From Nanobdellati archaeon (GTDB lineage: Archaea; EX4484-52; GLR71), in contig JAHYJO010000001.1 in assembly GCA_019429125.1 (NCBI GenBank), positions 7,088 through 71,087 of the forward strand: 64,000 bases of DNA. The letters run 5' to 3'. The notes beneath the pieces are model-generated. The model saw nothing but the letters and a program-made list of their open reading frames with translations. It ran no database searches and was not told the origin of the DNA. This document shows, in pieces, positions 15,001-29,097 of the stretch. A program made the translations under genes and the position numbers. Within the stretch, counting starts at the first letter, position 1. The number at the start of each line of letters is the position of its first letter.

Positions 15001-17355
15001 ATCGGTGCAGGACCTAAGAAAGCAGTATATATTGATAGTGCTATGAATTCAAATCCAAATATAGTATTTGATTATTCTCCATATGTTGATTTGATTGCAA
15101 GCGATATTGCGGTCTATAATTGTGATGATTGGGCTATAAAAACAGGATGTTTAAATCAATGGATAAGAAAGAATGTTACTGTTGATACTAATTTACGAAC
15201 TGTCACAATTGATACTATAAGTCCGACTGGTGCATATGCATTGGCACAATATATATGTGGGAATAAGATTTGTGAGGATGATTATGGCGAATCTAATTCA
15301 ATATGCCCAACTGATTGTAAGATAGATGTACCGTCATTGCCTCCTATGCCTGCACAACCAACATCAGGTGGTGGTAGTGGTTCTGGGACTGGTGCGGGTG
15401 AGGGACAAGGTCGTGAAACGGGTGCAGGTGCAGGAGGTATAGATAAGGACAGTTCAGATATAGATGGCAAAGGAGGAGAATTAGTTCCTATTGAGATAAA
15501 ATCTACACTACTTTACATAACTTTAGCTCCAGGTGAAAAATCAATACATTCAATTGAGATAAAAAATAATCAGGATAAGAAAGTAACATCACAGTTAAGT
15601 GTGGATGGACTTGTCTGGGACTTGATTCAGCTTGAGAAAACTGAGATAAAAGTGGATGAGAAATCAACTGAAAATGTAAAAATATCTGCATATGTATTGC
15701 CATCTACAATGCCAGGTATTTATACTGGTGATATAGTTGTTAAAACAGGGACTATGGTATATAGGACTCCTGTCACAGTAAAGGTTGAAATTAAAAAGGA
15801 AGCGCTTTTAGATGTCATAATTGAGACATTGTCAAGTGTGGTCAAGCCCGGTGAAGATGTAAAATTCATGGTTACTGTCAAGAATATGGGTGAGACTGAG
15901 ACTGTTGAAGACATAACACTTGAATATGTCATCAAGAGTCTTTCAAATAATACTATCATTACGACATATACCGAGACACTTGCAGTCAATAAATCATTAT
16001 CATTTGTCAAATCATTAAATATACCTAATAATACAAAAGAAGAACGGTATGTCATAACTTTAAATGCAAGATATGCAAATGCTGAAAAGTTTGCAACATC
16101 TTCTGACGTTGTTGATGTAAGCACACAACCATGGCCTATAGTCCTTCTTCTTAGATTGTTTAAGAGTTGGGTAACTTATGTCATATTATTAGTTGTATTG
16201 CCAATTCTTTATTTCGGACGAAAAGCATATCTATCATATCTCGACAAGAAAAAGAAGGGCGCGAGATATATATTCCCTATGGACTATTCAAAACTGCCAC
16301 AGAAAGGTGAAGAAAGTGTTAAGGTCGGTAAGATTGCAGAAACAGATATCAATGCATACATTAATATCAAGAACTTGACTATGCACTCAATTGCAGCAGG
16401 TGGTACTGGTTCTGGTAAGAGTGTAACTGCAATGTCAACGGCTGAAGAGTTATTAGACCTTGGCATCCCTGTTGTAGTATTTGACCCTACAGCACAGTGG
16501 AGTGGGTTTATGAGACCATGTAAAGATCCGCACATGCTTGAATTATATGCTAAGTATGGGCTTAAGCCTGAAAATGCAAAATCATATAAGACAAATATCA
16601 TTGTTGTTGAGAGCGCAGACAGCCTTACTGATGCAGAAATAGATATACGACAATATATGAAACCTGGTGAAATCACAGTATTTGTAATGAGCAAGTTGAG
16701 TTCATCAGAGCTTGATAAGTTTGTAAGAAGGACTATTAAGAGCATATTTAGCATACAGTGGCCTGAAGCGAAGACTTTGAGAGTTCTTATTGTGTATGAT
16801 GAGATGCACAGACTGCTACCTAAGTATGGCGGTAAGGGTGGATATCTTGAACTGGAACGTGGATGCCGTGAATTTAGGAAATGGGGTCTTGGTCTGTTTA
16901 TGATATCTCAGGTATTGGCGGATTTCAAGGGTGCTATAAAAGCTAATGTCGCAAATGAGATCCAATTAAGGACAAAGTATAATGGAGATATACAGCGTAT
17001 CAAACAAAGGTATGGTCCGGATTATGCTATGCGGGTGGCAAAACTTACTGTCGGTGCAGGGCTGATACAGAACCCTGAGTATAATGAAGGTAAACCATGG
17101 TTTATTCAATTCAGACCACTTTTGCATGATACTGGAAGATTAAGCAATGAAGAGCTTGATGTTTATATGGGTTTGAAAAAATCAATTGATGAGATTGCTT
17201 CAAAAGTTGCTAAGATGAAAGCAAAAGGTATGGATACATATGACATTGATATTGAAGTCAATATGGCACGTACTAAACTGCAACAGGGTGTGTTCAAGAT
17301 GGCTGAGACATATATACAGTCGCTTAAAGCAAGGTTGTCGTCAATGGCAGTATGA
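1..17355 (+). CDS. Giant repetitive cell-surface glycoprotein, 5'-truncated by the window edge. Extracellular region of more than 5,300 aa, C-terminal TM anchor, cytoplasmic HerA/FtsK-like ATPase domain.
   Basis: Uninterrupted frame-1 ORF from nt 1 (the track M at 106 is internal; upstream codons continue the repeat motif YAVGPQKWKYG) to TGA at 17353-17355. Very dense NxS/T sequons and paired Cys motifs (DDCGLV, WYNCT, DSCY). Modular repeats. C-terminal hydrophobic span followed by Walker A/B motifs. Confidence 0.85.
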   Translation, partial: YAVGPQKWKYGLLNNPAYNSTNSTEFYYNITTAPLVVMLESPIGGITFEKGVNNILLRGNVSDDCGLVKGANVEINIVKDETTYATCNPAGDENTGWYNCTIVNTTHNTWPVGLYNITMKADKKYYNDSEMLVVENAFRLVIRPILSNPTATSIQGGSVGGWGELWDFTVDISDPDGDSSNVSFWINLTGSWEFMDSVIWAQGNPTITFSGKTFSCADALDLGVKQYKFNVSDDYNYTSNITSTMTIEKDDVFVNPTATGGQSVDRNGTVTILLQTQIMDMDKAYAPVGSGVDGMTWVTVNGSDLSSYDGGYGLQTDASGYLNYNFDINCSYTTGQHAWKGGTFASVCYKDSISSTMYFDSLGKLYTDIELPVNGSNYGTGTQIIMRANVTSECVNEGLIDSEVKGFEFKSPSSSWYGCSPINEEEGLDTGWYNCTWDSTFKQPGNWTIRTNASNDTYYTAVNTWVDYFELLNNPPSYSDMNVTPDAGAWGTVYTFSVNFTDSDADTVDCDLYVTTDNGATWKLRNSTTLTSPAVCNLTVSDFDCGDIGNDNFFKFGLDDGYNTINTTNMSGPNITVDNIEIIYVYGNDKDVNRSYGILPLKVYVNDTTKGSFVSPNVPVYFNITTDGVAYNLEGSNVTVNGNSTYSFIPSCSYYEGEQTWYAEVNDSCYIPKNTTEYNLTVYGTLTNTLDIPNGVEYLPNNNITLRANVTSDCPAEVMNDTDVTFRYFRTGYSNTCTVENESTSYYNCTFNNTGMSPGYYDFEMNSSKSFYNTDSRVFSYVYGISSFWLETLPVLTTPTVSPGVGGWGETFYFTTNATDRDLDTMTVRLWLRKKPAGSWVQKNITTVQGINQTVNLSTRFPSGGDMGDWEFNFTVTADDSWDVYGTQNVSFTVEANDVRIEIISGNDSIVNRSSLPGNSNPNVTFGVRVFDDDLNALIPYSITTRFYVTKDGSNFTILATPQNETSEFYVTLNPDCSYGIGPQMWKASSVFSMNSWYKRINTSDQYFNITTVPLSTEISEPAGITTVRDMDNILLRANVTDECGLVVGASPVIVVERLTVPYFTCPTDGSLQYEGNGYYNCTVPAASMSGWPTGNYDVKIDSSKVYYNSSETNIKNNAFRLVTVPKVDNTVITSLSATGSSDFGWGEDWTFTVDVLDEDNDNVNVYLWANLTGNWELLDSTTCTNCGGSTHTIEFTGLKFLCTHIGNRDFKFNVSDDYSYTNETVGTFDIIKDDTVTYYGMVGDSSQIDREGNDVEIFSVRVRDIDFNAYVGTTIPNATGKIFVTTDGVSYDAGTQNQTDVSGYLYYTFNPDCNYLVGAQKWYGGPRGDSCYMDSDSSMFDTTITGQLKSSITNPAYSSSVLVGDIVNLNSSVFDECFVPVSGVTITHQAGPLSVDFEDITPVSDAGDGYYNSTWDTMFHQGGNWSFMLNASKINYYSNSTVYEEWLYLDNTPPVVENFTVSPTIEGWGHVYTYDAQMYDIQQDNITCDLYVSTDNGVSWVLKNSTFIETVSTLGVANCTLSLSNFDCSEIGTDNQYKFQIDDGTNVFNTSSISGPNITKDTVSIDYVFGNDSIVNRSGSQTTLFSARVLDSDKGSIPVMTGSSVTFWTTYDNVVYDLGYVISTNSTGYANYNFNPVCNPVKYEVGLQYWSAGVTDSCYSSINTSSNYTTIIYGSMDNQILLPLGTKFISGIDNVTIRSNVTSDCSVEETMNETLVNFTMTSLYTGTPYGCTTEVYNESTGYYNCTFETVGKEPREYNITMNATKEYYITNITTMTYLASVSSFRIENVPFMTAPVVSPGVGGWGETFFFTTNVTDADNDSMTVRLWLRKISGGSWVQKNITTVQGINQTVNLSTTFVSGNDIGDWEFNFTVTADDSWDVYGTENVSFIVEPNDVRIEIISGNDSIVNRSSLPGNSNPNVTFVVKIYDDDRNVLINIPIQTRFYVTKDGSNFVTLGDISNNSGYFFATLNPDCTYAVGPQMWKVASVFSGSSWYKLANSSNLNFNITTIPLATELSEPFGITRVRSVDDILLRANVTDECGLVSGASLEFFVDQSAIPYFTCPSDSTLNDENDGYYNCTIPAESTSGWSTGDYNINYTVSKVYYNSSDIIMENDAFRLVTVPQVSNPVITTLTSIGYSDFGWGEDWTFEVDVLDSDQDNVNVYLWVNLTGEWELLDSTVCTNCGTTQTISFGGHGFSCSNIGNRDFKFNVSDDYSYTNYTVGTFDIIKDDTITYYGGLGDLSQIDREGSDFETLTVQIFDADYNDYVGSSIPIATGKIFVTTDGVNYDIGTSNQTDASGYLYYMFNPDCSYLVGNQKWKGGSKGDACYVDSDSSMFDMTITGQLKSSITNPVYSSSVLVGDSINLNASIFDECLILVPGVTITHQAVSPSLEFEEILPVSDSGVGYYNSTFDTMFHQGGNWSFMINSSKVNYYSNSTLFSNWTYLNNTPPTVENFTVSPDEDGWGRVYSYEAQIFDTQMDNITCDLYVSTNGGAIWTLKNSTFIETVPTSGFANCILSLSNFDCSEIGTDNLYKFQIFDGTNKFNTSEISGPNLTKDTVSIDYVFGNDSIVNRSGSQTTLFSARVLDSDKGSIPVMTGSSVTFWTTYDNVNYNTGSVISTNSTGYATYQFNPTCSPVNYEVGPQYWKAGVTDSCYAQINFTQDNYTTTVMGDIINTIENPFYGTEYLRGENVTVRSISTPTIMDDCTASLLNIDNSIIFYNENGVANYSCITNEVGGGYYECIRNTTDMVARWYDTEMVSWETYYNNGTVLLQNHIFVKTAPNMTDETAITSVGGWGETFYFSVNVTDEDLDNVTLNLYIKNTASGPFGIWGAPKNSTILYSPQGEYAVLSWSDAPYCTIGTWEYKFEAIDTHGDTTFTDAHNFTIEKDDVEVLYSVGDGSYVWRNGSDSTTLTLDIVDSDRGNISVGTGTSARFWVTTNANDSSSWDLGKDTATLEGAIEYYFMNQFPDGGQKCDYTVGIQKWKGGTLNDICYKDQNSTEYDLSVNSSLVPNITNVYSQGYLRGDYIPLLTSVTDDCGSVSNVTLSYALLNMPNQYVCSKQSNVGWNESDGDYNCTWDSTNKPYKWYNVIATVSKEFFVTNMTSGNDRFFLGVTPQLDSLAVAPKIGGWGENHQFSVRLTSFDLATNNVSLWKSFDNVSWDLVNWQTVIMPIGQWVYFNERFTCNDYLTPPSGLNYYKIISKNVFGFSTETPVYNYTLNYDNVTLSITPASNDTVRRLGVTNALFEARIYDTDYGIYQNNTDANIWVTKDGSVFDYNESCSSLDGYCRINYDPQCDSDAGVQKWKIEVYDLCYQNINSTNVTVSVIGQLYSNVASPEQNDILNLNTTINLNTTVYDECGNNIVDASVYWYNSVPVSIASGYDTTWNVPLSYTKGPESIITNSTRQYYDNGTNMTDVYVYGWSIISSMSPLDLSSYLAGYDVPVQCTVTDANTTSNLTNYNVSFYKNDVFQDSNMTDSNGTAVWTWVTDLEPYGWYNLSCMISNDDTLYYTPAVAQMNTTVRVNRTLMIQSIVLSNPDIYRNDSFAPYDTNITVNIYDALFGPADNADVWFYNSTGFIDNCTTDVAGNCYISYNAPDNITPQGYAVYVNSTKAGLEDSITDNTIIGVYGIYYINITEPDNGSSWSKAIILNLSSYIENENGYVDTATVNWYIDSGFVATGQNTTSPLISQLPGPKILQSNATRPYYITGTDNILLNINGLVDVMWWYPLNGSKQAYPGSFDVQCLVKDNTSGVSVVGYAVDFWYWNGSDYVYNGTYTTNELGIAGYTWYPESKGVLDFKCNITDNATVFYSPNIGDDIATIIVEDINPPVISNVSIILNSTLEANLNYTNITAVVIDDVFVYSVIASITLPNGTIVNETMSNVFNDTYRVEYLPPVGGNYSVDIVASDSPPENNTNIVYAGDFSVWGTADIIGERTDEYVAFGITQVSDESFVLTVNATNNGPATAYDVSITVLEDPIGTVTYNTTNYECGNLSVGVMCSRDFLVTVPSKTAPQLITVYSTIWWDNPDKTPNSTVGITLIDVASNPVVDILEIFIQNQTKHGETTIIGTLTVSSAGNDYVDNIVLSKVGIILDLSCPLCNLTMSKQVEETLPAGEFFTSVISIDVPYGQSAGDYWTYISAKSDNAAQDLVIVNATVPLDVTWEREPSTFGTILALVNTTTTQIGVISTKNNGNSERNLIVQSGGNGSLFITKSPNSSSLGIGASRNVTLNYSIPALTTQGMYYVQIHIRESSANPSDAITDFWLNVTDLPPVISNVSIKPRGYEPDVGYSNISAVVIDNVLVSHVWLNSTKPNGTDEIYYFTLNGSDAYLNYSENETGVHKVVICANDSANLISCTMIYDISVMVNTTVVTETNITNTTIYGIMLDTGLNVSFNFTTLNDGYSRALDVNTSVLYPVLWNVSPSEFNMGDIILMPYQGEALLLIPADVIGEYYINFTSNWTNYDGSNDTLMTPIRIVIGSNPALNVTDMPASFVIESGKTLSTNLTLKSIGNDIAKSIAFNCTEGVVCSEFNVSFNPLVIVNLTKGNSTNFTINISVPLGYLAGVYDGVFTVYESKTNLSVNITVVIPANLTWEHNPVIISKNVIANRTGNFGSVRVSNMGNIPLTVSAISTNTTIFTINESSINLPLGDYYDAMINYSAPEVFSLVTYSAYFRTTNITALPSDRETFLNITIYPLYLDIITPTTVVPKLNVSKGKNITAIFNLTYSLVPVSENVTWQINLTKDSTSFSVNITPENINYSAISGLWTINFTAPDILAGVAYDLVAIVFDEINNIEIISVEKKAIIYTDTIPPLLFVDLFSNIINGSVIPIYVNTTDVGGMDYVSVEITTPNGTIFAYNATLLDSVGNDYFYNLDFIETSVLGAYPVAISAYDLSSNVNTTNVIFNAYLPSYFRGYSYDLESVDNETVVSAEFKLYKHDESVLMHNFWSDNVTGLYNESVYVRLYDVVVDVLNLTLTFDDFSMPLGGIFNPLVFGDIPIALIGAGPKKAVYIDSAMNSNPNIVFDYSPYVDLIASDIAVYNCDDWAIKTGCLNQWIRKNVTVDTNLRTVTIDTISPTGAYALAQYICGNKICEDDYGESNSICPTDCKIDVPSLPPMPAQPTSGGGSGSGTGAGEGQGRETGAGAGGIDKDSSDIDGKGGELVPIEIKSTLLYITLAPGEKSIHSIEIKNNQDKKVTSQLSVDGLVWDLIQLEKTEIKVDEKSTENVKISAYVLPSTMPGIYTGDIVVKTGTMVYRTPVTVKVEIKKEALLDVIIETLSSVVKPGEDVKFMVTVKNMGETETVEDITLEYVIKSLSNNTIITTYTETLAVNKSLSFVKSLNIPNNTKEERYVITLNARYANAEKFATSSDVVDVSTQPWPIVLLLRLFKSWVTYVILLVVLPILYFGRKAYLSYLDKKKKGARYIFPMDYSKLPQKGEESVKVGKIAETDINAYINIKNLTMHSIAAGGTGSGKSVTAMSTAEELLDLGIPVVVFDPTAQWSGFMRPCKDPHMLELYAKYGLKPENAKSYKTNIIVVESADSLTDAEIDIRQYMKPGEITVFVMSKLSSSELDKFVRRTIKSIFSIQWPEAKTLRVLIVYDEMHRLLPKYGGKGGYLELERGCREFRKWGLGLFMISQVLADFKGAIKANVANEIQLRTKYNGDIQRIKQRYGPDYAMRVAKLTVGAGLIQNPEYNEGKPWFIQFRPLLHDTGRLSNEELDVYMGLKKSIDEIASKVAKMKAKGMDTYDIDIEVNMARTKLQQGVFKMAETYIQSLKARLSSMAV
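4681..4845 (+). repeat. 165-nt tract nearly identical (1 mismatch) to 7669-7833, inside otherwise ~85-88% identical repeat units.
   Basis: Direct comparison. aaagatacggtgtctattgattatgt(t/a)ttcggtaatgattcaattgtcaacaggtctggtagtcagactactttattttctgcacgagttcttgattctgataagggaagtataccagtaatgaccggttcttcagtcactttctggacaacttatgataatgtg occurs at both sites. Confidence 0.85.
7669..7833 (+). repeat. Second copy of the near-identical 165-nt tract (partner of 4681-4845). The offset equals the super-repeat period of 2,988 nt.
   Basis: Same as above. Confidence 0.85.
15337..15480 (+). other. Pro/Gly/Ser/Thr-rich low-complexity linker (SLPPMPAQPTSGGGSGSGTGAGEGQGRETGAGAGG) between the repeat ectodomain and the membrane-proximal domains. 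It is preceded by a small Cys cluster (CGNKICEDDYGESNSICPTDC).
   Basis: Read from the translation. The antisense ORF at 15282-15470 is its shadow. Confidence 0.6.
16132..16215 (+). other. Predicted single transmembrane anchor of the giant protein (WPIVLLLRLFKSWVTYVILLVVLPILYF), followed by a basic stretch (GRKAYLSYLDKKKKGAR).
   Basis: 28-residue hydrophobic stretch followed by K/R-rich residues (positive-inside rule), placing the downstream ATPase in the cytoplasm. Confidence 0.6.
16380..17352 (+). other. C-terminal FtsK/HerA-superfamily (DUF87/VirB4/TraG-like) P-loop ATPase domain fused to the giant surface protein.
   Basis: Walker A AAGGTGSGKS (nt 16399-16422), then VVVFDPTAQW, Walker B LRVLIVYDEMHRLLP (DE at 16798-16803), then ERGCREFRKWGLGLFMISQ (RKxG...SQ arginine-finger region). 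Order and spacing are typical of the HerA/VirB4 clade. Confidence 0.7.
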
Positions 17356-17392: not shown

Positions 17393-19399
17393 ATGGCAGG
17401 TGATAATGTGACTAAGAAAAAAGGTAATGCTAAAGAAAGTGAATTTATGGGCATGAGCTTGGATGGTCTTCAGGATAAGAAAAAAGAGATTAAGGAATTT
17501 CTTGCATCTTTAGAAAATGATTATCGTAATGCAACTATTTCTGAAAAAAGTTATAAGCATACAAAAGAGGTCAATCTTAAAATGATGGAAGATTTAAAAC
17601 AACAGCTTGCCGATTTTGGCATAACTGATTCTGATGATGATGTCATTACAACTCCTGCAGGTGACGACAAAACAACTATTGGGACTTCTGAGGTAGCTGT
17701 GTCTGCGAGTCCTGTCAGTAATGGGGGGAGCGTTTCTGGTAATAGTGATGTAGCTGATAATGTTTCAGTTGATAATGTGGCAGCTAATAATGTGCCTCTT
17801 AGTTCTGAACCTTATTCACAGAGTACACAGAGTGCTGGAGCTTCAGAGGGATTGAATAGTTCAGATGAATCTGAACATATAATCAATAAAGATACCAAAG
17901 GGTTGTCTTTAGTAGATAAGTTAAAGCAGTATGTGGAATTATCAAATGCGGTCGCTGCTAAAAATACCAACAAATCCGGAAATGTATCCAGCAATCAGCC
18001 AGTTCAATCTGTTGCAGAGACTACACCTCAAGTTAGTCAGGTTCCAGTTGCGCCCGTGCAGAATGTTGAGTTATTGATGCAAAAGTTTTCTGAAAAAGTT
18101 AATGTGGATTTGGAACGTATCAAAGCCAATCTTGATTCCTTTAAAGAGATGCGTGCGTCAACAGATGAACATATGCAGACAGTTACAGAAGGGCTTACCG
18201 AACTTAGGACTACAGTATTTCAGAGAGAGGCGGGAATAAAAGAGCAAGAGATGCGGTTTACAAGAGTTAAAGAGCTTGTGGATGATATTGAACCTGAAAA
18301 GATAAATAAAGAGTTTATGAAACGTGATAAGTTTACATCTGAGATGGAGATACGTATTGAGAAACTTGAAGTCAAGATTGAGGATATCATAAAAACTATA
18401 AAGCATACAGATGGTCTGTTGAAAAGTATGGGAAATCTTGAAAATATAGCAAATATAGACCATAAGATTGCAAATAAAATGGAACATGTAAGTGAGACTG
18501 AAAAATCTATGGTTCATCTTTCTTCAAAAATGGAAAAGATGTTTATGAGTCTAAATGAAAAACTTGAAAATTTTGATGTTTATGAAGCAAGACAGGATAA
18601 TATGAATGAGATAATGAATGATATGCTTAAGAATGTGGATCAGCTTGGTGTCAAATTTGAGAGTTATATCGATAAGAAAGATATGTTCAAAGTTAAAAAC
18701 GATATGGATTCTTTGTCTGAAAAAATTGAGATGATGATGGGTATATTGAAAAAAGCAGTGCCGTTTGCAGAAGCTGAAATTCCAAAAGAACTTCAGGAAC
18801 TTGAAGATCAACGGGAGGATATAGAGAGTCTTCTGTCTACACTTGCGCAGGAACATAAGAAGAAACAGATATCTGATAAGGAGTATATGAATATCAAGAA
18901 GAAAAATGATGTAGCTCTGGATAATATTAAAGTAGAAATAAACAAAATTATGAAAAAAATGATTAAAAACGAATCAAGTAGCAAGTCTTTGTCATCAAAA
19001 CAGACTAAAGATGCAAAAGATAAAGTAGGAGATTCTGCTGTTGAAAAAGTAGGAGATGCTGAAATGTCTGAAACGGTTGAGATTGAGGTTGGTGTAGATA
19101 AAGGTATTACTGATTCAGATGAAATAAAAATTAATGATGATTTAATAGAGGTGGAGGGGAGTCCTAAAGATAATGGTCTTGAGAAAGCAGATGAAAAAGA
19201 ATCGTTCGAGTCTAATAAGTCTGAATCAGTGCAAGATGCTGTCAAGCCTGTTGATAATGGTGCGGGCAAGGTTAAAGAAAATATGAGTGAAAAGATTGAT
19301 GTCAATGATCCTCTTATTATTGAACTTGAGGAATCACTTGCGCAAGGTTTAATATCTCAAGAGACATATGATAAAACAAAAAAATTGATAATAGGTTGA
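17393..19399 (+). CDS. 668-aa cytoplasmic coiled-coil protein, acidic, with an S/T/N-rich low-complexity segment. No TM. Tightly linked between the two giant surface-protein genes.
   Basis: ATG 38 nt after the giant ORF stop. Long E/K-rich heptad-like regions. Stop lies 5 nt before the next gene start. Confidence 0.7.
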   Translation: MAGDNVTKKKGNAKESEFMGMSLDGLQDKKKEIKEFLASLENDYRNATISEKSYKHTKEVNLKMMEDLKQQLADFGITDSDDDVITTPAGDDKTTIGTSEVAVSASPVSNGGSVSGNSDVADNVSVDNVAANNVPLSSEPYSQSTQSAGASEGLNSSDESEHIINKDTKGLSLVDKLKQYVELSNAVAAKNTNKSGNVSSNQPVQSVAETTPQVSQVPVAPVQNVELLMQKFSEKVNVDLERIKANLDSFKEMRASTDEHMQTVTEGLTELRTTVFQREAGIKEQEMRFTRVKELVDDIEPEKINKEFMKRDKFTSEMEIRIEKLEVKIEDIIKTIKHTDGLLKSMGNLENIANIDHKIANKMEHVSETEKSMVHLSSKMEKMFMSLNEKLENFDVYEARQDNMNEIMNDMLKNVDQLGVKFESYIDKKDMFKVKNDMDSLSEKIEMMMGILKKAVPFAEAEIPKELQELEDQREDIESLLSTLAQEHKKKQISDKEYMNIKKKNDVALDNIKVEINKIMKKMIKNESSSKSLSSKQTKDAKDKVGDSAVEKVGDAEMSETVEIEVGVDKGITDSDEIKINDDLIEVEGSPKDNGLEKADEKESFESNKSESVQDAVKPVDNGAGKVKENMSEKIDVNDPLIIELEESLAQGLISQETYDKTKKLIIG

Positions 19400-19404
19400 T
19401 TTGA

Positions 19405-22400
19405 TTGTCGGTAAAAGCTAACAAACAGTGGCATATTTATGTAGTAATTGCAGTGTTAGCTTTAATGTTTTTTTCAAATTCAGTAATGGCATCTTTTGAT
19501 TCTTATTGGTTTGATACGGATTGGCATTTCAGGACGAATTTTACAATAAATAATACGGATTATGATAGGGACTATTGGCCTGTTGAACTTGATATAAATT
19601 TTACAGATATAATGCTTCAATCGGGTAAAAATGGCACATTTGATAATGAGTCAATTAGGGTTATTGAACATGATTTTAGTGGGGCTGTATTGTTTGAACA
19701 TCCTTTTCAGTTTGATAATAAAATTGGGTTTAATGTTAGTACGAATGCGGTAGGAACTATTGTTTTTCTTTTGAATGGGACAACAAATGCTAATCAGATA
19801 AGATATATTTATGTATATTTTGATACTGTCGAAAATACTGTCAAGGTGCCTGTTTCATATTCAACAAATCTTGTGTATTCTTGGGACGGTGAGGAAGCGC
19901 ATGTCAATAATAGTCTGTTTAATATGAAGATTGATACACTTAGGGGTGAAAATACATCAGGTATATATGATATTTATTCGAATAACATAATATTTTCTAC
20001 TTCTTCTACAAATAAAACAAAGGAATATACACAATTTTCAAATGGGACAGATATTTTTTCATTTGATTTTAGAAATAATGCTACATTTTCTGGTGGAAAT
20101 ATAAAAAGAGTTATGGAGCAGACAGGTGTTGAGACTTTATGGAATAATCCTGGTTTAGTTACTGGTTTTGGGTTTATGAAAAAAAGGTATATATTTTATG
20201 AAAATACATCATGGATAAAGATTGAACAAAATTATACAAATGTTGGTGTGTCATCAGTGACTCGAAATTCCACAAGTGCGGGAGCGTTATCTGTGAATGA
20301 TATTTCAACAGATGAATTTAATGGACCATTTAGGTTTGGAGATATGACTAATCCAATGTCTTGGTATGGCGCATCAGATGGTAGTCGTGGTCTTGGTCTG
20401 ATAAATTTTAATTATAGTTCTAATGCAAATTTTTATGTAAAAAATGATACAATTTTAGATCGTATGGGAATTCATCTTGACCCTGTTGTAATTATACCTA
20501 ATGAATCTGTAACTAATACAGTCATAATGCAGTTTAACGGAATTAATTATAATCAGGCAATGCTTGAATCACTTAGGAATCAGATGGCATATCCACCAAT
20601 AATTGTTCTGGAAAATAATCAATTCATTCCTGTGACTATTGTTCCAAAAATAAATTATTCAATCTATAATAGAAATGATTCAGTGCTTATAATTGCAAAT
20701 GTAACTTCAGATAAGTATAATGTTATCACATCAATGAATGCTACAGTTGATATAGGTACTGCATCTACATCTGATGATATTTTGATTAGCCTCTACGATG
20801 ATGGGTTATCTTTACATGGAGATGAGGTTGCTTATGATGGCATTTTTTCTAATATCTTTAATCCCTCTGAGAACAGTATAATAGGGGTATGGGACGTTAC
20901 TGTTCGTGCATTTGACTCTTTTGATGTAGTTCTCAATGAAGTGAATGTGTCGTTTAATGTAAGTGATATGTATAATGTGTCAATAAACATATCAAACCCG
21001 TCAGGTCTCGTTGATAGGGTTATATATGTGATTATAACTGTTCTGAATATAAGGGATGAATATATAGGTGGTGTATCTTTCAATTGTACTTATGGTGCTG
21101 GATTGCTGACAAATATAACAGATTATGATAACGGTACATATATACTTAATTTCACTGCACCGTCAATAACTGGTAATTATATTCTTGGTTGTAATGGTAC
21201 TAAGTTCAATAATATGGGGAATGACTCACAGTTTTTCAATACTGAAACGAGTGAGACAACAATTGCACTTGCGGTATCTCCACAGAATTATACTTCAGAT
21301 AATATTTCTCTATTAGTAGGTGATTATTTTGAAATAAGTGTGAATGCAACAGATGTTGGAGGGGCTAATGCAAAATATGTAAACATATCGTTGTCACTAC
21401 CTGTTAATTTAACTGCTAATTCTACTTTTGAATCTTGTGGTGATGTTTTTATGAATTTATCATGTGTTAAGGATTTCAATATAAGTATAATTAATGGTAC
21501 TGTTTCTGGAAATTATACTATAAATGTAAGTGCTACATGGTTGAACCCAAATCTTCTTACTAATTCCACTAATATTTCATTTATAACGTATGTCTATTCA
21601 AATCCTGTAATTGATATTTTGGGTGGCGGTTTAACAGGGGTTGTACCTGATGGTAAAAATGTAACATTGGGTAGTTTTAATGTGGATTCAATCGGTAATA
21701 GTGATCTTACAAACATAACATTTAATGTATCTGGTATTTCTGATTTTATTGTAATATTTAGTCCCAAAAATATATCATCATTATCTTTTGGGAGTTCACA
21801 GCCAGTCTCTGTTGAAGTTATAGTGCCACAGGATTATGTGTCGGGTAATTATTCAGGCATAATAAATATTAGTTCTGATAATGGTGGATGGAAAACTGTA
21901 GAATTGAACTTGACTGTGCCGGGAACAACTATAATATCATTACATAAAACTCCAGATAATTATACCTCTTCAATAATCTCTTTGTATTCTGGGGATTCAT
22001 TTGATGTGGATGCAATCATGACTAATGATGGTATTTCAGATGCAAAGGATGTAAATATTACATTATCTATGCCTCAGAATCTTAGTGCTAATTCAACATT
22101 TGAGCAATGTGGGCGTGTAAATGATAGTGGTTATTGTACAGAACAGTTTAACATAACAATTAGTGCGTTTACAGTTCCTGGAAATTATACTTTTAACATG
22201 ACATCAACATGGGTCAATCCTGATTTATCAACAGATTCTGTCTTATTGAATTTTACCGTTCAGGTAGTATCTAATCCAATTATTGATGTTATAGGGAACA
22301 TTTCAACCGAACTGCCTGACAATTCATTTGTTGCTGCTGGAAATTTTACTATATATTCAATAGGTAATTATAACCTTACAAACATAACATTTGATGTTAT

Positions 22401-25326
22401 TGGGCTTTCAGGTTTTAATGTTACGTTTAATCCAGTTAATGTATCTGATCTTGGAGCTATTTTGTCTCGTTTGATTTATGTTAATGTTTCTGTACCATTT
22501 GCTCAGTCTCCAGGAAATTATACAGGCTTAATAAATATTACTTCTGTAGATGGGGGATATGATACTGTTGAGATTAATGTAAGTGTCGTGACTAGAAAAG
22601 CTTGGGATGTTACACCTAAAACTTGTCTCCGGTCTGAGAATCCTGATACAGGTACCGTGTGTCTTGTCAGTATCATGAATACTGGGAATGTTCCGTTAAA
22701 TTTTACGATTAATCCTGTGGAAATTAATTATACTTCTGTAAATGAAACAAACATGACTGTGTTAAAGGATTCAATATATGTGGTTGAGTTTTTGTATAAT
22801 GTAACAAATGTGACCCGGACATTTTATTATGAGAATTATACGATTAATGTGAATGATGTTGATGTTTTTCCGCAATATTATGATTTTAATATTACGCTTG
22901 TCCCTTATGTTGAGCCTTTATTTTCTGTAAATTTGAGTGAAGTTGTAGCTCAACAGGATACGAGCATTGAAATATTTGTAAATATAACTGACAGGTCTAC
23001 AACTGGTATAAATTGGACAAGGTTGAATGTTACACTGCCAAATGGTACGGTTGAGACTTTTAATATGTCACTTGTTTCGATAAATGGTACAGATAGCTTA
23101 TGGTTCTTTAATTATTCTGGAAACATGTCTGATTTTGTTAATTATACAGATGGCAATGTGTCGCTTAATATTTCTAATTATACAGGTACTACTCTTGCAC
23201 GAGGTATATATAATATGACTATTTCATCACAGGATAATACTGGTGTAATTGGGTTATATAGTAGTAATTTTAAAATATATACAACTTTTGTTATAGGGTT
23301 TACTCCAGGGTCAACAAAGTATTATCAAGGTTCTTTAGGTATGATATATTATACTGTTACAGATACGAATGGGGATGCTATTGAAGGCGCTAATGTTACG
23401 ATATCACTTAAAGATCCAAATGGTTATGTGATATATATTGAGAATTTTATGATGGATTCAACAGGACAAGTGTCACCTGTGCCGACATTTTCTATCGCTA
23501 ATGATGCAACAGTTGGTATTTATAATTTTACTGCGGAAATGACTTATTATGATACTGTCTTGGAGACGAATGTGACAGTTGTTGATAATTCAACGTTTAT
23601 ATTACAATCGGGAAGTTCAGGTGGAGGTGGCGGTCTCACGGCAGACATTGATACGGGAGTATTGTGGTATCCTGATAATGTTATGCGCTTTGAGATGTGG
23701 TTCTCTTATGCAGGCAATGTCACAGAACCAGATAACATGACACTTTTTGTATATGATCCTGCTGAAAATCTATATTTTAATATAAATCTGAATGATACAA
23801 ATAATACTGCGCCCGGACTATATCATTATAAATTTGCAATGCCCATGAGTTCGGCGTCAGGGTATTACTATGCTATTCTTACTGCATCAAAAGAGGGTTT
23901 TGTAAGTCAAAAAGTGAAACCATTTAGGGTGTCTAAAGGAGGACCGTATGATGTCCGTGTGATGTTAATACCACCTAATGAGGTTGAGCGTCAGGATTAC
24001 GTCAATTTCAATCTATATATAGAGAATATGGGTGAGGTTACTCAAGATGTATATATTGATTATTGGGTGTCTTTTGGGAATGATACTTATTATTATAACA
24101 GTGAGGCGGTTCTTACTCCTGCTGGTGTAAATGTTACTATTACACGAAGTGCATACATATTTTCAAATCAGCCATTAGGTATAACTACTCTTAATGTTAT
24201 GGCAACATATGATAGTGTACAACCACCTATCATTTCAAATACTACTTTTGAAGTGATTGAAGATGAAATTGTGATTCCACGAAAACCGGATATTCCAGAA
24301 GTATCACCACCATTACCTACTGGGTGGCCTGAGATACCTGACAATATCGGTGGAGGAAGCAGTTTTCAACCCAATTCTGAATTTGATGAGGAATACAGCA
24401 TCGATATTGATACATACAATAAAGAAATAAATATCGTGAAAGGATGGACAGATATAAGCGGGATCCGTGTGAGAAATAATGGTTTGGATACAATTAATAA
24501 TATCACTCTGGAACTGACCGGCATACCTATGTCATGGTTTAATATAACACCTAATATGTATGAGACGATACCCTCGGGAAACAGTACCTTATTCCTTATT
24601 GAATACAGTGTGCCTAAAGATGCGAATTCAGGTGTGTATCCTTTTAATCTCATTGCAATATCTAATGAGATATCATCTAGTAAGATGGGGCGACTTATTG
24701 TGTTTACATCTATTGAAGAGTTGATAAGGCATGATATAGTCAATTTAAAGATTGAGATAAGTAAGATTGAAGAAGATATATATTTCTCTCAACGTATAGG
24801 GAAAGAGGTTTCACATATATGGAACACGGTTGATCAGGCATGGTCTGAACTTGTCCTTGCGGAAGAAAATGCAGATGCTAAATTATTTGATGATGCACTC
24901 CAGAATATACAGGTGGTTTCTGGACTTGTAAAAAGAGCTAAGATGCTTCTTGAGACATCATCAAAAATTGAAGATCTTGATGATGGGAATATTTGGATTA
25001 CTGCTTTGAAAGTGTTAGTTGTTATGGGGCTATTTGCGCTGGTCAGTGTATGGTGGATACGTAAAAAGGATAAGTTCAAGCTAAAAAAATCATTGAATAA
25101 ATTTAAGAAAAAAACATTGAGTAAAGAGGAGATTGAGATACGTCAAAAAGAGTTAATTTATGATAAAACTAAAATTCAAAGAGTATTGAAGCTTTTAGAG
25201 CGTGAGTCCAAAGATGGAACAATAAATAAAGATGCGTATGATGAATTAAAGAATATTAACGATAAAAAGTTATCTGCAATTGATAAAAAAATAAAAAGTT
25301 TGGGCGCCAATAAAGGAAGCAAATGA
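19405..25326 (+). CDS. 1,973-aa secreted surface glycoprotein with an N-terminal signal peptide, tandem ~210-aa Cys-containing modules, and a C-terminal TM anchor plus short cytoplasmic K/E-rich coiled-coil tail.
   Basis: TTG start 5 nt after the upstream stop. Signal peptide MSVKANKQWHIYVVIAVLALMFFSNSVMA. Many NxS/T sequons. Duplicated module (...NLTANSTFESCGDVFMNLSCVKDFNISI... / ...NLSANSTFEQCGRVNDSGYCTEQFNITIS...). TM ALKVLVVMGLFALVSVWWIRKK near the C-terminus. Confidence 0.8.
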   Translation: MSVKANKQWHIYVVIAVLALMFFSNSVMASFDSYWFDTDWHFRTNFTINNTDYDRDYWPVELDINFTDIMLQSGKNGTFDNESIRVIEHDFSGAVLFEHPFQFDNKIGFNVSTNAVGTIVFLLNGTTNANQIRYIYVYFDTVENTVKVPVSYSTNLVYSWDGEEAHVNNSLFNMKIDTLRGENTSGIYDIYSNNIIFSTSSTNKTKEYTQFSNGTDIFSFDFRNNATFSGGNIKRVMEQTGVETLWNNPGLVTGFGFMKKRYIFYENTSWIKIEQNYTNVGVSSVTRNSTSAGALSVNDISTDEFNGPFRFGDMTNPMSWYGASDGSRGLGLINFNYSSNANFYVKNDTILDRMGIHLDPVVIIPNESVTNTVIMQFNGINYNQAMLESLRNQMAYPPIIVLENNQFIPVTIVPKINYSIYNRNDSVLIIANVTSDKYNVITSMNATVDIGTASTSDDILISLYDDGLSLHGDEVAYDGIFSNIFNPSENSIIGVWDVTVRAFDSFDVVLNEVNVSFNVSDMYNVSINISNPSGLVDRVIYVIITVLNIRDEYIGGVSFNCTYGAGLLTNITDYDNGTYILNFTAPSITGNYILGCNGTKFNNMGNDSQFFNTETSETTIALAVSPQNYTSDNISLLVGDYFEISVNATDVGGANAKYVNISLSLPVNLTANSTFESCGDVFMNLSCVKDFNISIINGTVSGNYTINVSATWLNPNLLTNSTNISFITYVYSNPVIDILGGGLTGVVPDGKNVTLGSFNVDSIGNSDLTNITFNVSGISDFIVIFSPKNISSLSFGSSQPVSVEVIVPQDYVSGNYSGIINISSDNGGWKTVELNLTVPGTTIISLHKTPDNYTSSIISLYSGDSFDVDAIMTNDGISDAKDVNITLSMPQNLSANSTFEQCGRVNDSGYCTEQFNITISAFTVPGNYTFNMTSTWVNPDLSTDSVLLNFTVQVVSNPIIDVIGNISTELPDNSFVAAGNFTIYSIGNYNLTNITFDVIGLSGFNVTFNPVNVSDLGAILSRLIYVNVSVPFAQSPGNYTGLINITSVDGGYDTVEINVSVVTRKAWDVTPKTCLRSENPDTGTVCLVSIMNTGNVPLNFTINPVEINYTSVNETNMTVLKDSIYVVEFLYNVTNVTRTFYYENYTINVNDVDVFPQYYDFNITLVPYVEPLFSVNLSEVVAQQDTSIEIFVNITDRSTTGINWTRLNVTLPNGTVETFNMSLVSINGTDSLWFFNYSGNMSDFVNYTDGNVSLNISNYTGTTLARGIYNMTISSQDNTGVIGLYSSNFKIYTTFVIGFTPGSTKYYQGSLGMIYYTVTDTNGDAIEGANVTISLKDPNGYVIYIENFMMDSTGQVSPVPTFSIANDATVGIYNFTAEMTYYDTVLETNVTVVDNSTFILQSGSSGGGGGLTADIDTGVLWYPDNVMRFEMWFSYAGNVTEPDNMTLFVYDPAENLYFNINLNDTNNTAPGLYHYKFAMPMSSASGYYYAILTASKEGFVSQKVKPFRVSKGGPYDVRVMLIPPNEVERQDYVNFNLYIENMGEVTQDVYIDYWVSFGNDTYYYNSEAVLTPAGVNVTITRSAYIFSNQPLGITTLNVMATYDSVQPPIISNTTFEVIEDEIVIPRKPDIPEVSPPLPTGWPEIPDNIGGGSSFQPNSEFDEEYSIDIDTYNKEINIVKGWTDISGIRVRNNGLDTINNITLELTGIPMSWFNITPNMYETIPSGNSTLFLIEYSVPKDANSGVYPFNLIAISNEISSSKMGRLIVFTSIEELIRHDIVNLKIEISKIEEDIYFSQRIGKEVSHIWNTVDQAWSELVLAEENADAKLFDDALQNIQVVSGLVKRAKMLLETSSKIEDLDDGNIWITALKVLVVMGLFALVSVWWIRKKDKFKLKKSLNKFKKKTLSKEEIEIRQKELIYDKTKIQRVLKLLERESKDGTINKDAYDELKNINDKKLSAIDKKIKSLGANKGSK

Positions 25327-25338
25327 TTAGTGTTTTTT

Positions 25339-25683
25339 TCATTGTTTACACAGATTAACAATTGCTAACTTTTTTCTCATCTCAGATTTATATTCTCTTT
25401 TTTCAAAAAACATAATTAAGAATATAAGACACATAAAGATAGTTAATATCAGTATGTTTATAGTATGATTAATAAGGTCATTTATTGTGTGGTATATAGC
25501 ACCTTCGTCTGTGGAACATAATGTTTTTCCGTTCTGCATGGCAAAGGAATACTCGATTGATGAAGTGCCTTCGAAATCGTTGCAGATGTCTGCGTGTATG
25601 GATTCATGAAAATATGTTTGTGTAGAATTGATGAATATGAATATGATGAGTATTACAAGTATCTCTTTTGAAAATTGTTTCAT
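25339..25683 (-). CDS. Small hypothetical membrane protein (114 aa) with N- and C-terminal hydrophobic segments.
   Basis: ORF with two hydrophobic stretches. No recognisable family. Confidence 0.35.
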   Translation of the reverse strand: MKQFSKEILVILIIFIFINSTQTYFHESIHADICNDFEGTSSIEYSFAMQNGKTLCSTDEGAIYHTINDLINHTINILILTIFMCLIFLIMFFEKREYKSEMRKKLAIVNLCKQ

Positions 25684-25756: not shown

Positions 25757-26791
25757 TTGTGGATTATTATGTTGTGGAGTCAGATGAGGTTAAGATATTT
25801 TAAAAAACAATTCTGCTTGGGCAGTCTTATTATATATGTTAGTTTTATGGTATGTTTATTCATCTTTACTAATCCAATTTATGCAAAAGAACTTCAGGTT
25901 GGTGTGTCTCCTTTAATGCTTGATCTTGGAACTGTGAAAAAAGGAGAAAGTGTTGTGGGGTCATTTTTTATTGTGACGTCATCACAAGATGATATTATTG
26001 TGAAATTAAAATCATCACGTTCTAATTTTGATTTCTTTAAAAAACCTATAAATATAGATATTGTTAATTATGTGTCTGAAGAAGATAGTTCCGGATGGGT
26101 TTATTTTCCTGAGAATCCATATGTTCTCAAATCTACAGAGTATGTGTTAAATACCAAAGGCGGAACAATATCTGATTGGAAAAATGTTAATTTTGTGTTG
26201 AATGTCCCTGAGGATGCTGAGTCATGCTATCATGCATTTAAGATTGAACCTACACCTTATACAACAAAAGAAGAGGCTAGTTCTGTAAGTATTGTTGCAA
26301 TGGTAACGATTACTGTGAAATTTCAGGTTGCTGGTGGATGTGAGGTCAATGGAAATATATTGGATGTCATGCAGGATACTTCAAGTAAATATATTGATTT
26401 AGGTGTATATTTTAAGAATACAGGTAATGCAACGTTTTCAGCGTATAGTCCTGACGTGATGATATTTTATGAGAATGGCACATTGCTTGATAAGCAACGT
26501 TCGGGATATGCTTATTTTACTCCTGGAGATATTGGTGTGTTGAATGCACGGTTTGATCCAAAAAAGATTGTTCCTGGTAATTATATTGTAAATACTACAG
26601 TATTATATGGTGCTAATACAACATCAAAACAAGTGCCACTTACTATTGAAAGATCAGTGGTTGCAAAAATATCGACAGTAGTTTCAAAGACACCTGATGG
26701 TACTGATAATACTTTTTGGATATTGCTACTTGCAATAATTCTGATAATTGTTGGCGCCTATAAATTCTATAAGGTCGAAGATAAAAGATAA
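25757..26791 (+). CDS. Exported protein (344 aa) with an N-terminal signal anchor and a C-terminal TM (FWILLLAIILIIVGAYKFY). Hypothetical surface protein.
   Basis: ORF with hydrophobic N-terminus, NxS/T sequons and a C-terminal hydrophobic helix followed by a basic tail. Confidence 0.6.
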   Translation: MWIIMLWSQMRLRYFKKQFCLGSLIIYVSFMVCLFIFTNPIYAKELQVGVSPLMLDLGTVKKGESVVGSFFIVTSSQDDIIVKLKSSRSNFDFFKKPINIDIVNYVSEEDSSGWVYFPENPYVLKSTEYVLNTKGGTISDWKNVNFVLNVPEDAESCYHAFKIEPTPYTTKEEASSVSIVAMVTITVKFQVAGGCEVNGNILDVMQDTSSKYIDLGVYFKNTGNATFSAYSPDVMIFYENGTLLDKQRSGYAYFTPGDIGVLNARFDPKKIVPGNYIVNTTVLYGANTTSKQVPLTIERSVVAKISTVVSKTPDGTDNTFWILLLAIILIIVGAYKFYKVEDKR

Positions 26792-26799
26792 ATGCTAAT

Positions 26800-26890
26800 A
26801 GATGTTAATAGATGATAATCTAGAATAATTGATGATAATTGATGATAATTGATGATAATTGATGATAATTGATGATAATTGATGATATAT
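26800..26890. repeat. 10-bp tandem repeat: (gatgataatt) x5 perfect at 26831-26880, plus degenerate flanking copies, about 9 units in all.
   Basis: Directly visible. Starts about 10 nt after the stop of the 25757-26791 gene. Non-coding. Confidence 0.9.
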
Positions 26891-27218
26891 CTATATTTTT
26901 TTGGTTTTTGTTAATTATTATTTTATTCAAACTTTGACATTTCTGACTTTTTTGTTTTTTATCGTTTTTTAAACACCTGAATTGGACAGATATTAGTACA
27001 GTACTAGATTGCGTTTTTTATGTTTTTTAACTTATTTTTCAATACCTCATTTGACAATTTGTATTCATAAATCAAAATATGTTATTAGGGGTTTGATATA
27101 TATTGAAATTCCGATTTAATCTATAATAAAAATTAAGAAAATTCATAAAAAGTAGCCAAATGAATTTGACAGTTGGGCTAAAATTTAAAAAAATGATTAA
27201 ACAAATAGATATTTATTC

Positions 27219-27475
27219 GTACTTGTTTAGCAAAAAAATAATCGGCATACTACGATCATCATGATGTGATTTACATACATTATACTTTTTATAAAATCAA
27301 TAGCTACAGCTTGAAAATGTGTAGTTAATTTTTGTTAAAAAATATTTACTCCTTTTTTGTAAAATCGATAGCTTGCAAGTAACGTAGAAAATTATAACTT
27401 AAAAATATTTCAACAAATAATGACCGTATCAAAAAAATCGTAAGCAAGTAAGACAAAATTTAGCTAAACAAGTAC
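27219..27475. mobile_element. 257-bp MITE-like non-autonomous element, copy 1. It has perfect 13-bp terminal inverted repeats GTACTTGTTTAGC/GCTAAACAAGTAC and is flanked by a perfect 8-bp direct duplication ATTTATTC.
   Basis: TIR at 27219-27231 and 27463-27475. ATTTATTC at 27211-27218 and 27476-27483. 97% identical to the second copy at 63509-63765. No ORF. Confidence 0.7.
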
Positions 27476-27676
27476 ATTTATTCTTATTTTTTACCATAAA
27501 TTAACTTATTTTTAGTCAAAAAGAAAGAAAATTATATGGAAAATGGAAGTAAAGTACTAAAAATAGCTAACTGTCAAATAGATATTCTGAATGAAATAGT
27601 TAACAAACTGTCAAACTTAGGTTTCATCTCTAGTTCAGTGGGTAATGTGGGCTCTTGAGAGCAATTATTATGAACC

Positions 27677-27684
27677 TATATAAG
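27677..27684 (+). promoter_or_regulatory. Candidate archaeal TATA box (tatataag) about 32-39 nt upstream of the ATG at 27716. This implies a leaderless or very short-leader transcript.
   Basis: TATA-like octamer at appropriate spacing. Inference only. Confidence 0.35.
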
Positions 27685-27715
27685 TACTTAAAACCAATAA
27701 TATTTTGTGTTCTCT

Positions 27716-28264: not shown

Positions 28265-28272
28265 GGGTGTAG

Positions 28273-29091: not shown

Positions 29092-29097
29092 TATGGG

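Follow-up and report, generated by a model that had tools for sequence, protein, structure and literature searches.

A predicted DPANN surface glycoprotein encoded beside a SPEARE-like ATPase gene shares a cytoplasmic hairpin motif with its coiled-coil neighbor

DPANN archaea live attached to other cells, and giant proteins of the SPEARE type are the main candidates for making the contact. SPEARE proteins were described in Nanohaloarchaeota, with relatives of their cytoplasmic domain in Aenigmarchaeota, Woesearchaeota and Micrarchaeota (Hamm et al. 2019; PMC6642349); a later re-analysis interpreted that domain as a VirB4/TraG-like ATPase with a coiled coil behind it, and proposed that proteins of this type serve as secretion "straws" (PMC10266531). 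Neither paper mentions a glycoprotein partner or a coiled-coil gene. The proteins of the attachment organelles seen by cryo-electron tomography in DPANN co-cultures were reported as unknown (PMC11420986), the tomography literature on DPANN contact structures names no genes, and we found no relevant literature on DPANN archaea in combination with DUF87, DUF2341 or NEW3. Here we describe a 64,000-nucleotide stretch (the window) of a Nanobdellati archaeon (GenBank assembly GCA_019429125.1, contig JAHYJO010000001.1, positions 7,088 to 71,087), in which a SPEARE-like giant gene, a gene for a coiled-coil protein, and a gene for a predicted type I membrane glycoprotein follow one another on the forward strand (Table 1). 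The last of these, at 19405-25326, is the subject of this study, and its product is hereafter called the glycoprotein. It is already in the databases as a hypothetical protein, and the kinds of domain that it contains, like the SPEARE-like giants, are known; we found no description in the literature of the partner family to which it belongs, of the tripartite module, or of the shared cytoplasmic hairpin reported below.

The predicted architecture of the giant gene product is that published for SPEARE proteins in the two papers cited above (PMC6642349, PMC10266531), and we classify it as SPEARE-like. The glycoprotein resembles SPEARE proteins in being a DPANN surface protein that is mostly extracellular, with arrays of Ig-like and adhesion domains and a single transmembrane segment near the C-terminus, and it shares a NEW3 two-domain unit with its SPEARE-architecture neighbor. 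It differs from them in two respects. The P-loop (VirB4/HerA-like) domain, which is the most conserved part of SPEARE, is not present in its 87-residue tail, and the hidden Markov model (HMM) of the ATPase matches the upstream gene only. Moreover, its length is near-constant, whereas the SPEARE-like partners range across loci from at least 2,094 to 14,402 residues. We conclude that the glycoprotein is the partner of a SPEARE-like protein and not a member of the SPEARE class. With slightly better than even confidence we read it as a lectin-headed surface subunit that would be docked through its tail to a cytoplasmic adaptor, the coiled-coil protein, in a SPEARE-type cell-surface complex.

Part of the evidence for this reading comes from the cytoplasmic tail, in which lysine and glutamate make up 37% of the residues. 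The first-pass annotation, a reading of the letters alone, had described a K/E-rich tail of about 100 residues forming a coiled coil; the composition was as described, but the AlphaFold2 (AF2) model of residues 1650-1973 (predicted local distance difference test score, pLDDT, 87.9) has a helix-turn-helix hairpin instead of one long coiled coil. The model contains, in order, a beta-sandwich, a three-helix bundle, the transmembrane helix, a basic linker, and the hairpin, whose antiparallel helices (1907-1936 and 1942-1971) meet in a turn at K-D-G-T-I and have pLDDT values of approximately 90 to 95. The residues E1932, G1938 and Y1945 are each kept by 91% or more of the family members, whose consensus is R-x-L-x-L-L-E-x-E-x-K-E-G-I-I-S-x2-A-Y-x-E-L-K-K-x-N-E-x-K-L. 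The amphipathic helix, the G-[IL]-[IL]-[ST] turn, and the aromatic residue in the second helix recall the SHOCT, GvpG and CdvA domains, of which SHOCT is thought to be an oligomerization module, but the motif described here is longer (about 50 residues) and specific to this locus. None of the three families could be assigned. The best SHOCT score (PF09851/PF20612) was 21.9 bits against a cut-off of 27, on a motif copy in the coiled-coil protein, with SHOCT_2 appearing in 5 of 37 tails at E≤0.1; the best score of the CdvA-like coiled-coil domain (PF18822) was 22.8 bits against 30 (E 1e-4), on one coiled-coil motif copy; and GvpG was matched below threshold in 10 of 37 tails. Searches of PDB sequences with profiles of the tail and of the C-terminal region returned coiled-coil or designed-protein noise only. 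The tail motif is thus SHOCT-like in shape and is assigned to no family.

A tail HMM was built from residues 1912-1962 of 65 members and run on 717 open reading frames (ORFs) of at least 60 codons from the window and five loci. It matched the glycoproteins and, in five of the six loci, the adjacent coiled-coil proteins (full-sequence E 6e-13 to 2e-5), a single protein containing as many as three copies. Of 40 coiled-coil ORFs from related loci, 39 contained one to three copies of the motif at conserved positions: the N-terminal end, a point about 75% along the sequence, and the very C-terminus. The hairpin motif is therefore, at the level of sequence, locus-specific and common to the tail and the coiled-coil protein, and because the motif is shared, an interaction between the two gains indirect support. 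The coiled-coil protein itself matched no database family, its homologues are all named "hypothetical", and a search of PDB sequences with its profile gave noise and HA2 only. The single further match of the tail HMM was weak (E 0.0055) and fell on a 97-residue ORF beside the cluster of locus L001 (8021-8314, minus strand), between the coiled-coil and glycoprotein genes of that locus; this ORF carries the hairpin motif in the form G-K-I-S-x3-Y-x2-I-K.

The grouping of the three genes is likewise found outside the window. We scanned 81 loci with three HMMs, one each for the ATPase, the coiled-coil protein, and the tail. Where a family member was preceded by at least 8 kb of sequence (26 loci), 19 loci had the ATPase gene upstream on the same strand and two more had it nearby in another orientation; where at least 2.5 kb preceded it (37 loci), the coiled-coil gene was upstream in 26 and nearby in a further four. 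The compact module of ATPase protein, coiled-coil protein and glycoprotein that had been proposed from the window was thus upheld, the same order recurring in most related loci. The gap between the coiled-coil and glycoprotein genes was 5 to 108 nucleotides in 15 loci and 0.3 to 1.9 kb in 12, with an overlap of 9 nucleotides in one locus and a larger distance (8.6 kb at most) in two. Translational coupling of the two genes is possible in the window, but the spacing of 5 to 6 nucleotides is kept in close relatives only, the genes of other loci being 35 nucleotides to 8.6 kb apart, and any coupling would therefore be limited to those relatives. In Aenigmatarchaeota-like lineages, then, the SPEARE-like ATPase protein is in most cases accompanied by the same two partners, a glycoprotein and a coiled-coil protein.

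The giant ORF continues past the left edge of the window, and the GTG at position 106 is not its start. The locus tags 00005, 00010 and 00015 suggest that it is the first gene of the 154-kb contig, where it may be truncated as well. Its sequons number 4.9 per 100 residues in the ectodomain and 0.27 in the cytoplasmic part. The ATPase domain, of the HerA/FtsK superfamily, matched Pfam DUF87 (PF01935) with 38.9 bits against a cut-off of 23.2, HerA chains in PDB with E 3e-8, the HerA model of PADLOC with E 2.5e-16, and HerA models in NCBIfam, whereas CedD (E 1.3e-9) and TraC (E 1e-3) were matched with lower, sub-threshold scores. PADLOC recognized the HerA domain only, with no partner proteins and nothing for the glycoprotein, and a defense function of the cluster is unlikely. 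In the Aenigmatarchaeota genome bin1364 (CP070801; locus L049, 9473-15730), a 1,528-residue ATPase-bearing protein, followed by a 542-residue coiled-coil protein, shares NEW3 two-domain units with the glycoprotein (27-29% identity), which shows shuffling of ectodomain modules between the two protein classes. This protein was considered as a fusion of the glycoprotein head to an ATPase and rejected, the NEW3 units being all that the two have in common.

Table 1. Features of the module and its surroundings, in window coordinates (aa, amino acid residues of the protein named; TM, transmembrane segment; SD, Shine-Dalgarno).
Feature	Position	Strand	Basis or remarks
SPEARE-like giant gene	1..17355	+	open from window base 1, >5,784 codons; ectodomain, TM, HerA-type ATPase, helical C-terminus
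Giant protein, TM segment	16129..16224	+	predicted from sequence
Giant protein, ATPase core	16399..16809	+	Walker A GGTGSGKS (16399-16422) to Walker B LIVYDEMH (16786-16809)
Coiled-coil protein gene (cytoplasmic, 668 aa)	17393..19399	+	no TM, no Cys; proposed adaptor
Hairpin motif copy 1, coiled-coil protein aa 24-67	17462..17593	+	tail HMM
Hairpin motif copy 2, coiled-coil protein aa 466-512	18788..18928	+	tail HMM
Hairpin motif copy 3, coiled-coil protein aa 645-665, extreme C-terminus	19325..19387	+	tail HMM
Gene junction	19394..19407	+	GGTTGA (SD-like, contains coiled-coil gene stop), TT, in-frame TGA, TTG start (19405-07)
Type I membrane glycoprotein gene (predicted)	19405..25326	+	TTG start, TGA stop, 1,973 codons + stop
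Signal peptide, aa 1-29	19405..19491	+	predicted cleavage VMA/S; heuristic and orthologue comparison
Head, aa 30-395	19492..20589	+	most conserved part of family; starts W-x4-W-H-[FY]-R; galactose-mutarotase-like beta-supersandwich
Beta-sandwich array, aa 396-1665	20590..24399	+	Ig-like, NEW3/CARDB, MG2/CarboxypepD_reg-like domains; P-rich linker at end
Tandem unit 1, aa 619-841	21259..21927	+	NEW3 with C678/C687 + second beta-sandwich; homologous to giant protein aa 3905-4123
Tandem unit 2, aa 843-1064	21931..22596	+	C902/C911; 48% identical to unit 1
Membrane-proximal beta-sandwich, aa 1666-1767	24400..24705	+	AF2, Foldseek
Extracellular three-helix bundle "stalk", aa 1770-1852	24712..24960	+	AF2; common to ORF 35041-36405
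Transmembrane helix, aa 1863-1888	24991..25068	+	hydropathy, orthologues, AF2
Basic juxtamembrane linker, aa 1889-1906	25069..25122	+	low confidence in AF2
Cytoplasmic helical hairpin, aa 1907-1971	25123..25317	+	motif LLE-x-E-x-K-[DE]-G-[IL]-I-[ST]-x3-Y-x-E-L-K-x2-N-x2-K-L
T7 run in 12-nt gap past glycoprotein gene stop	25333..25339	+	possible archaeal oligo-T terminator of three-gene unit, from sequence only
Seven genes for signal-peptide and/or TM proteins	25757..36405	+	344, 185, 272, 943, 839, 260, 454 aa

The window has a G+C content of about 33% and contains a long series of genes on the same strand. A frame of 1,973 codons at this composition, with 67 full-length relatives, is a real, conserved gene and not a chance ORF. 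It is identical to NCBI K0B07_00015 apart from the start: the NCBI model (P0001) begins at ATG M21 and has 1,953 residues, which removes most of the signal peptide. The TTG at 19405 is the first possible start, given that the coiled-coil gene ends with its stop codon at 19397-99 and an in-frame TGA occupies 19402-04; the statement that TTG follows the upstream stop immediately is accordingly right for the in-frame TGA, but the stop of the upstream gene lies 5 nucleotides away. The junction GGTTGA-tt-TGA-TTG is identical in the two closest loci (L004 and L005), where the in-frame extensions encode the charged n-region and the hydrophobic h-region of a signal peptide, and the TTG start is supported because of this agreement. 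The alternatives, ATG M21 and the GTG at codon 17, both fall inside the hydrophobic core; no start other than TTG yields a signal peptide, and those orthologues that are annotated with longer N-termini have full signal peptides. The comparison suggests that several orthologue models in the databases are also truncated at the N-terminus by a wrong start.

Read from TTG, the N-terminus is M-SVKANKQWH-IYVVIAVLALMFF-SNSVMA/S (the slash marks the predicted cleavage site), which by hydropathy shows the three regions expected of a Sec signal peptide: the n-region carries K4 and K7, the h-region spans residues 9 to 32 approximately with a Kyte-Doolittle hydropathy above 1.8, and the c-region is S-V-M-A/S. 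This heuristic reading, together with the unclipped N-termini of orthologues, is in good agreement with the Sec-type signal peptide that had been noticed at first. The glycoprotein contains 107 N-X-S/T sequons (X not P), compared with 36.2±5.2 expected from 500 shuffles, which bears out the very high sequon density reported earlier. All of them precede residue 1800, and the density is 5.84 per 100 residues in the 1,830-residue ectodomain and 0 in the tail. Half of the members or more retain 58 of the 107 positions, and 24 positions, N65 and N124 among them, are retained by 80% or more. The one other hydrophobic segment is 1861-1886, modeled as a helix at 1863-1888, and full-length orthologues all retain this C-terminal transmembrane segment and a tail of 69 to 122 residues. 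The predicted topology is that of an exported, C-terminally anchored type I membrane protein, an assignment backed by the asymmetry of the sequons, and the ectodomain is probably N-glycosylated.

Conservation among the 65 members is highest in the head (residues 50-300 approximately), followed by residues 1500-1600, and lowest in the signal peptide, in the linker around 1600-1650, and in the transmembrane and juxtamembrane region. The head carries many invariant charged residues, and its invariant polar positions include R43, E61, D80, R85, E88, Q102, R133, D140, K147, E182, E207, Q239, E243, K260 and R287. An AF2 model of residues 30-470, made with a 30-sequence alignment, is all-beta in the head (pLDDT 87.6) and has the beta-supersandwich topology of the galactose mutarotase-like fold. 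The likeness to aldose-1-epimerase, GH38 C-terminal domains, and YidC P1 is one of fold: sequence identity to the matches is 5-12%, and no catalytic glycosidase domain is attached; the head might act as a lectin, an enzyme or a scaffold. A search of PDB sequences with the head profile gave no matches. The WWNxSWHYR motif of the head resembles the W-x-W-x-Y-R of DUF2341 (Pfam PF10102) and had pointed to that family as a candidate, which was rejected when none of the 30 head sequences matched that family even at E≤0.1.

Beyond the head, Pfam NPCBM_assoc/NEW3 (PF10633) was matched with 71.8 bits against a cut-off of 24.4 in two stretches, the better at residues 639-712, and the NCBIfam choice-of-anchor X domain (NF041940) with 29 bits against 25 at residues 461-502; MG2, CarboxypepD_reg, and the GH123-N beta-sandwich were matched below threshold in Pfam and NCBIfam. 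The two NEW3 domains are shared with CARDB-type, COG1470-like proteins, but these labels say nothing on the head, the tail motif or the module. A direct pairwise comparison, but not a whole-protein self-BLAST, found that a two-domain unit of 222 residues is duplicated once (48% identity, E 1e-61), with one cysteine pair per copy, and residues 629-839 are 29% identical to residues 3905-4123 of the giant protein. The first-pass description of tandem cysteine modules was thus correct as to a tandem repeat with cysteine pairs, but the repeat is a single duplication and the protein has eight cysteines only. These form four pairs (561/596, 678/687, 902/911 and 1074/1086), each cysteine being conserved in at least 92% of the 65 members, and disulfides between the paired residues are likely. 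Foldseek comparison of the C-terminal model with PDB found generic Ig/PapD-like sandwiches only.

The family was delimited by several searches. Among 5.8 billion proteins we found 67 full-length relatives with 30-100% identity, mostly 1,920-2,100 residues long (five members have about 1,700), labeled mostly as Aenigmatarchaeota, or else as "DPANN", "Nanohaloarchaea", "Nanoarchaeota" or "Parvarchaeota". Their names are hypothetical or domain-based (JGI "uncharacterized membrane protein", NCBI "NEW3 domain-containing protein"), and their N-termini, where unclipped, have a signal peptide followed by the conserved [ED]-W-W-[ND]-x-S-W-H-Y-R. A head profile of 444 positions gave 1,166 matches among 1.84 billion representatives. 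Of the 87 with E≤1e-80, about 80 cover most of the profile and the others are N-terminal fragments; the remaining matches cover the first sub-domain only (about 120-150 residues). The tail motif is also present in 44 of the newly found full-length representatives. A scan of species-representative genomes, for which 10 full-length sequences were used as the query since the 30-sequence head alignment was too divergent, detected 76 loci, the full-length ones almost all in metagenome-assembled genomes (MAGs) of Aenigmatarchaeota.

How the parts might work together can be envisaged as follows. Outside the cell, from the tip to the membrane, the glycoprotein is predicted to consist of a conserved lectin-like head, a sequon-covered beta-sandwich stalk of near-constant length, and the three-helix bundle; inside, it has only the basic linker and the conserved hairpin. 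The tail hairpin would pack on its homologues in the coiled-coil adaptor, or tail and adaptor would bind one common site, for example the conserved helical C-terminus of the ATPase protein. Docking of this kind would join a glycoprotein of constant length and a giant ATPase protein of variable length in one trans-membrane surface complex, which, given the DPANN lifestyle, probably would serve cell-cell or host contact. In this scheme we infer the binding of tail to adaptor, the ligand of the head, the role of the ATPase, and the biological function. Integrin-type receptors offer an analogy of mechanism only, with no homology: a large glycosylated ectodomain, one transmembrane segment, and a short tail that recruits a scaffold. 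The module provides a defined gene set for cryo-electron tomography or proteomics of enrichments.

Several observations weigh against this reading. The evidence for binding between the tail and the coiled-coil protein is the shared sequence motif. The most conserved region is the head, which is unexpected for the tip of a host-specific adhesin, and a structural or intra-complex role therefore fits the conserved head and the fixed length at least as well. The supersandwich fold is generic at the identities given above, and sugar binding by the head is a guess; the substrate of the ATPase could be DNA, protein or nothing. All members of the family come from MAGs or metagenomes. Linkage is not universal either: in five of the 26 loci that extend at least 8 kb upstream, neither the ATPase gene nor the coiled-coil gene was present in the vicinity. 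One of these five is the locus of a 1,963-residue member with the tail motif (L036, 10001-15892) on a 1.9-Mb contig of Hydrothermarchaeum profundi JdFR-18, a MAG not labeled as DPANN, where neither gene was found in the 10 kb upstream; this member could reflect horizontal transfer, a binning error, or independent use.

Signal peptide, helical stalk, and C-terminal transmembrane segment are the design of the archaeal S-layer anchors of the SlaB and tetrabrachion type, and the rival reading that survives best, although we think it unlikely, is that the glycoprotein is an abundant structural strut that spaces the S-layer or envelope, its tail resting on a coiled-coil skeleton and the ATPase being functionally unlinked. 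On sequence signals the glycoprotein has the signal peptide, sequons, beta-sandwiches, membrane-proximal helical stalk, and C-terminal transmembrane segment of Sulfolobus SlaB, Staphylothermus tetrabrachion, and Haloferax Csg, and the AF2 model agrees with the anchor design. A strut would also account for the near-constant length across the whole range of identities, the conserved head with its many conserved sequon positions, and those members that are not linked to an ATPase gene. However, its stalk is a short three-helix bundle, not a long coiled coil, and no S-layer family in Pfam or NCBIfam matched it. A conserved cytoplasmic domain is unusual for S-layer proteins, and here the tail motif is both conserved and common to the adjacent gene, with the ATPase gene in synteny in most loci. 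In locus L002 a separate S_layer_C gene lies about 9 kb downstream, which argues that the canonical S-layer protein is probably the product of another gene.

The sub-threshold matches of the ATPase to CedD and TraC, beside HerA, raise the question of a transfer machine similar to type IV secretion or to Ced, in which a HerA/VirB4-like ATPase would drive the transport of DNA or effectors, with the glycoprotein as its adhesin or conduit. The "straw" proposal for SPEARE-type proteins and the ectodomain modules common to the glycoprotein and the giant protein are consistent with such a machine. Against it, the ATPase matches HerA best and not VirB4; no VirB6/CedA-like polytopic channel, pilin, or second VirB4 was recognized by Pfam or NCBIfam in the ten cluster genes, from which divergent ones could escape; and a glycoprotein with its own Sec signal needs no dedicated exporter. 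We regard this alternative as quite improbable. The least probable is that the shared hairpin is an independent membrane- or nucleotide-binding or regulatory element of the SHOCT, GvpG or CdvA kind in proteins that act separately, as the recurrent sub-threshold matches to these families might suggest, given that the motif HMM finds essentially two neighboring gene families within the loci, that the copy positions in the coiled-coil protein are conserved, and that the presence of the motif in the 97-residue ORF next to the L001 cluster suggests an interaction code particular to the locus.

The docked-subunit reading could be extended to the surrounding genes. The order of the seven genes downstream is conserved in L004 and L005 and in part in L001, and their exported products may belong to the same apparatus. 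A bolder proposal, which we put forward as a doubtful one, is that the whole cluster (the giant, the three-hairpin adaptor, the glycoprotein, and the seven exported proteins) is a DPANN-specific trans-envelope attachment or bridge apparatus, in which the hairpin would be a new cytoplasmic "zipper" coupling surface proteins to the ATPase. The last of the seven genes (35041-36405, plus strand) encodes a signal peptide, a beta-sandwich, a helical stalk, a C-terminal transmembrane segment, and a 16-residue tail; its residues 163-376 align with residues 1622-1824 of the glycoprotein (E 9e-7), and it resembles a reduced paralogue of the membrane-proximal module that lacks the hairpin. The 943-residue exported protein (29098-31929, plus strand) has a second hydrophobic segment at residues 742-761, an (NM)n/(NT)n run, and an acidic tail of about 180 residues, and its counterpart in L001, L004 and L005 is a CarboxypepD_reg-like gene for 800-940 residues. 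In the distant loci L001, L002 and L003 the family member is followed, 0-7 kb downstream, by a gene for a ParA/MinD-type (CbiA/ParA) ATPase; none was seen among the window ORFs scanned.

Some further observations concern the head and the remainder of the window. One subclade (P0014-P0026, P0030, P0034 and P0038) has a conserved [ST]-G-[MLF]-F-[IV]-G-F-[GR] between the N-terminal hydrophobic segment and the WWN motif, possibly an alternative signal for processing or sorting. The first sub-domain of the head occurs in six copies in P0118, P0125, P0148 and P0163, proteins of 4,400-5,700 residues without an ATPase; it is joined to an ATPase in P0193 (2,604 residues) and is also found in Thermoplasmata proteins. 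The T7 run past the glycoprotein gene adjoins a convergent gene for a 114-residue protein with two transmembrane segments (25339-25683, minus strand), which is conserved in L004 and L005 (119 and 120 residues). The genes from 36827 to 63881 are those of an ordinary DPANN chromosome: a TctA transporter, an ABC exporter, A-type ATP synthase subunits A, B, C and I, malic enzyme, NAD kinase, anaerobic ribonucleotide reductase with its activase, and tRNA-Ser(GCT).

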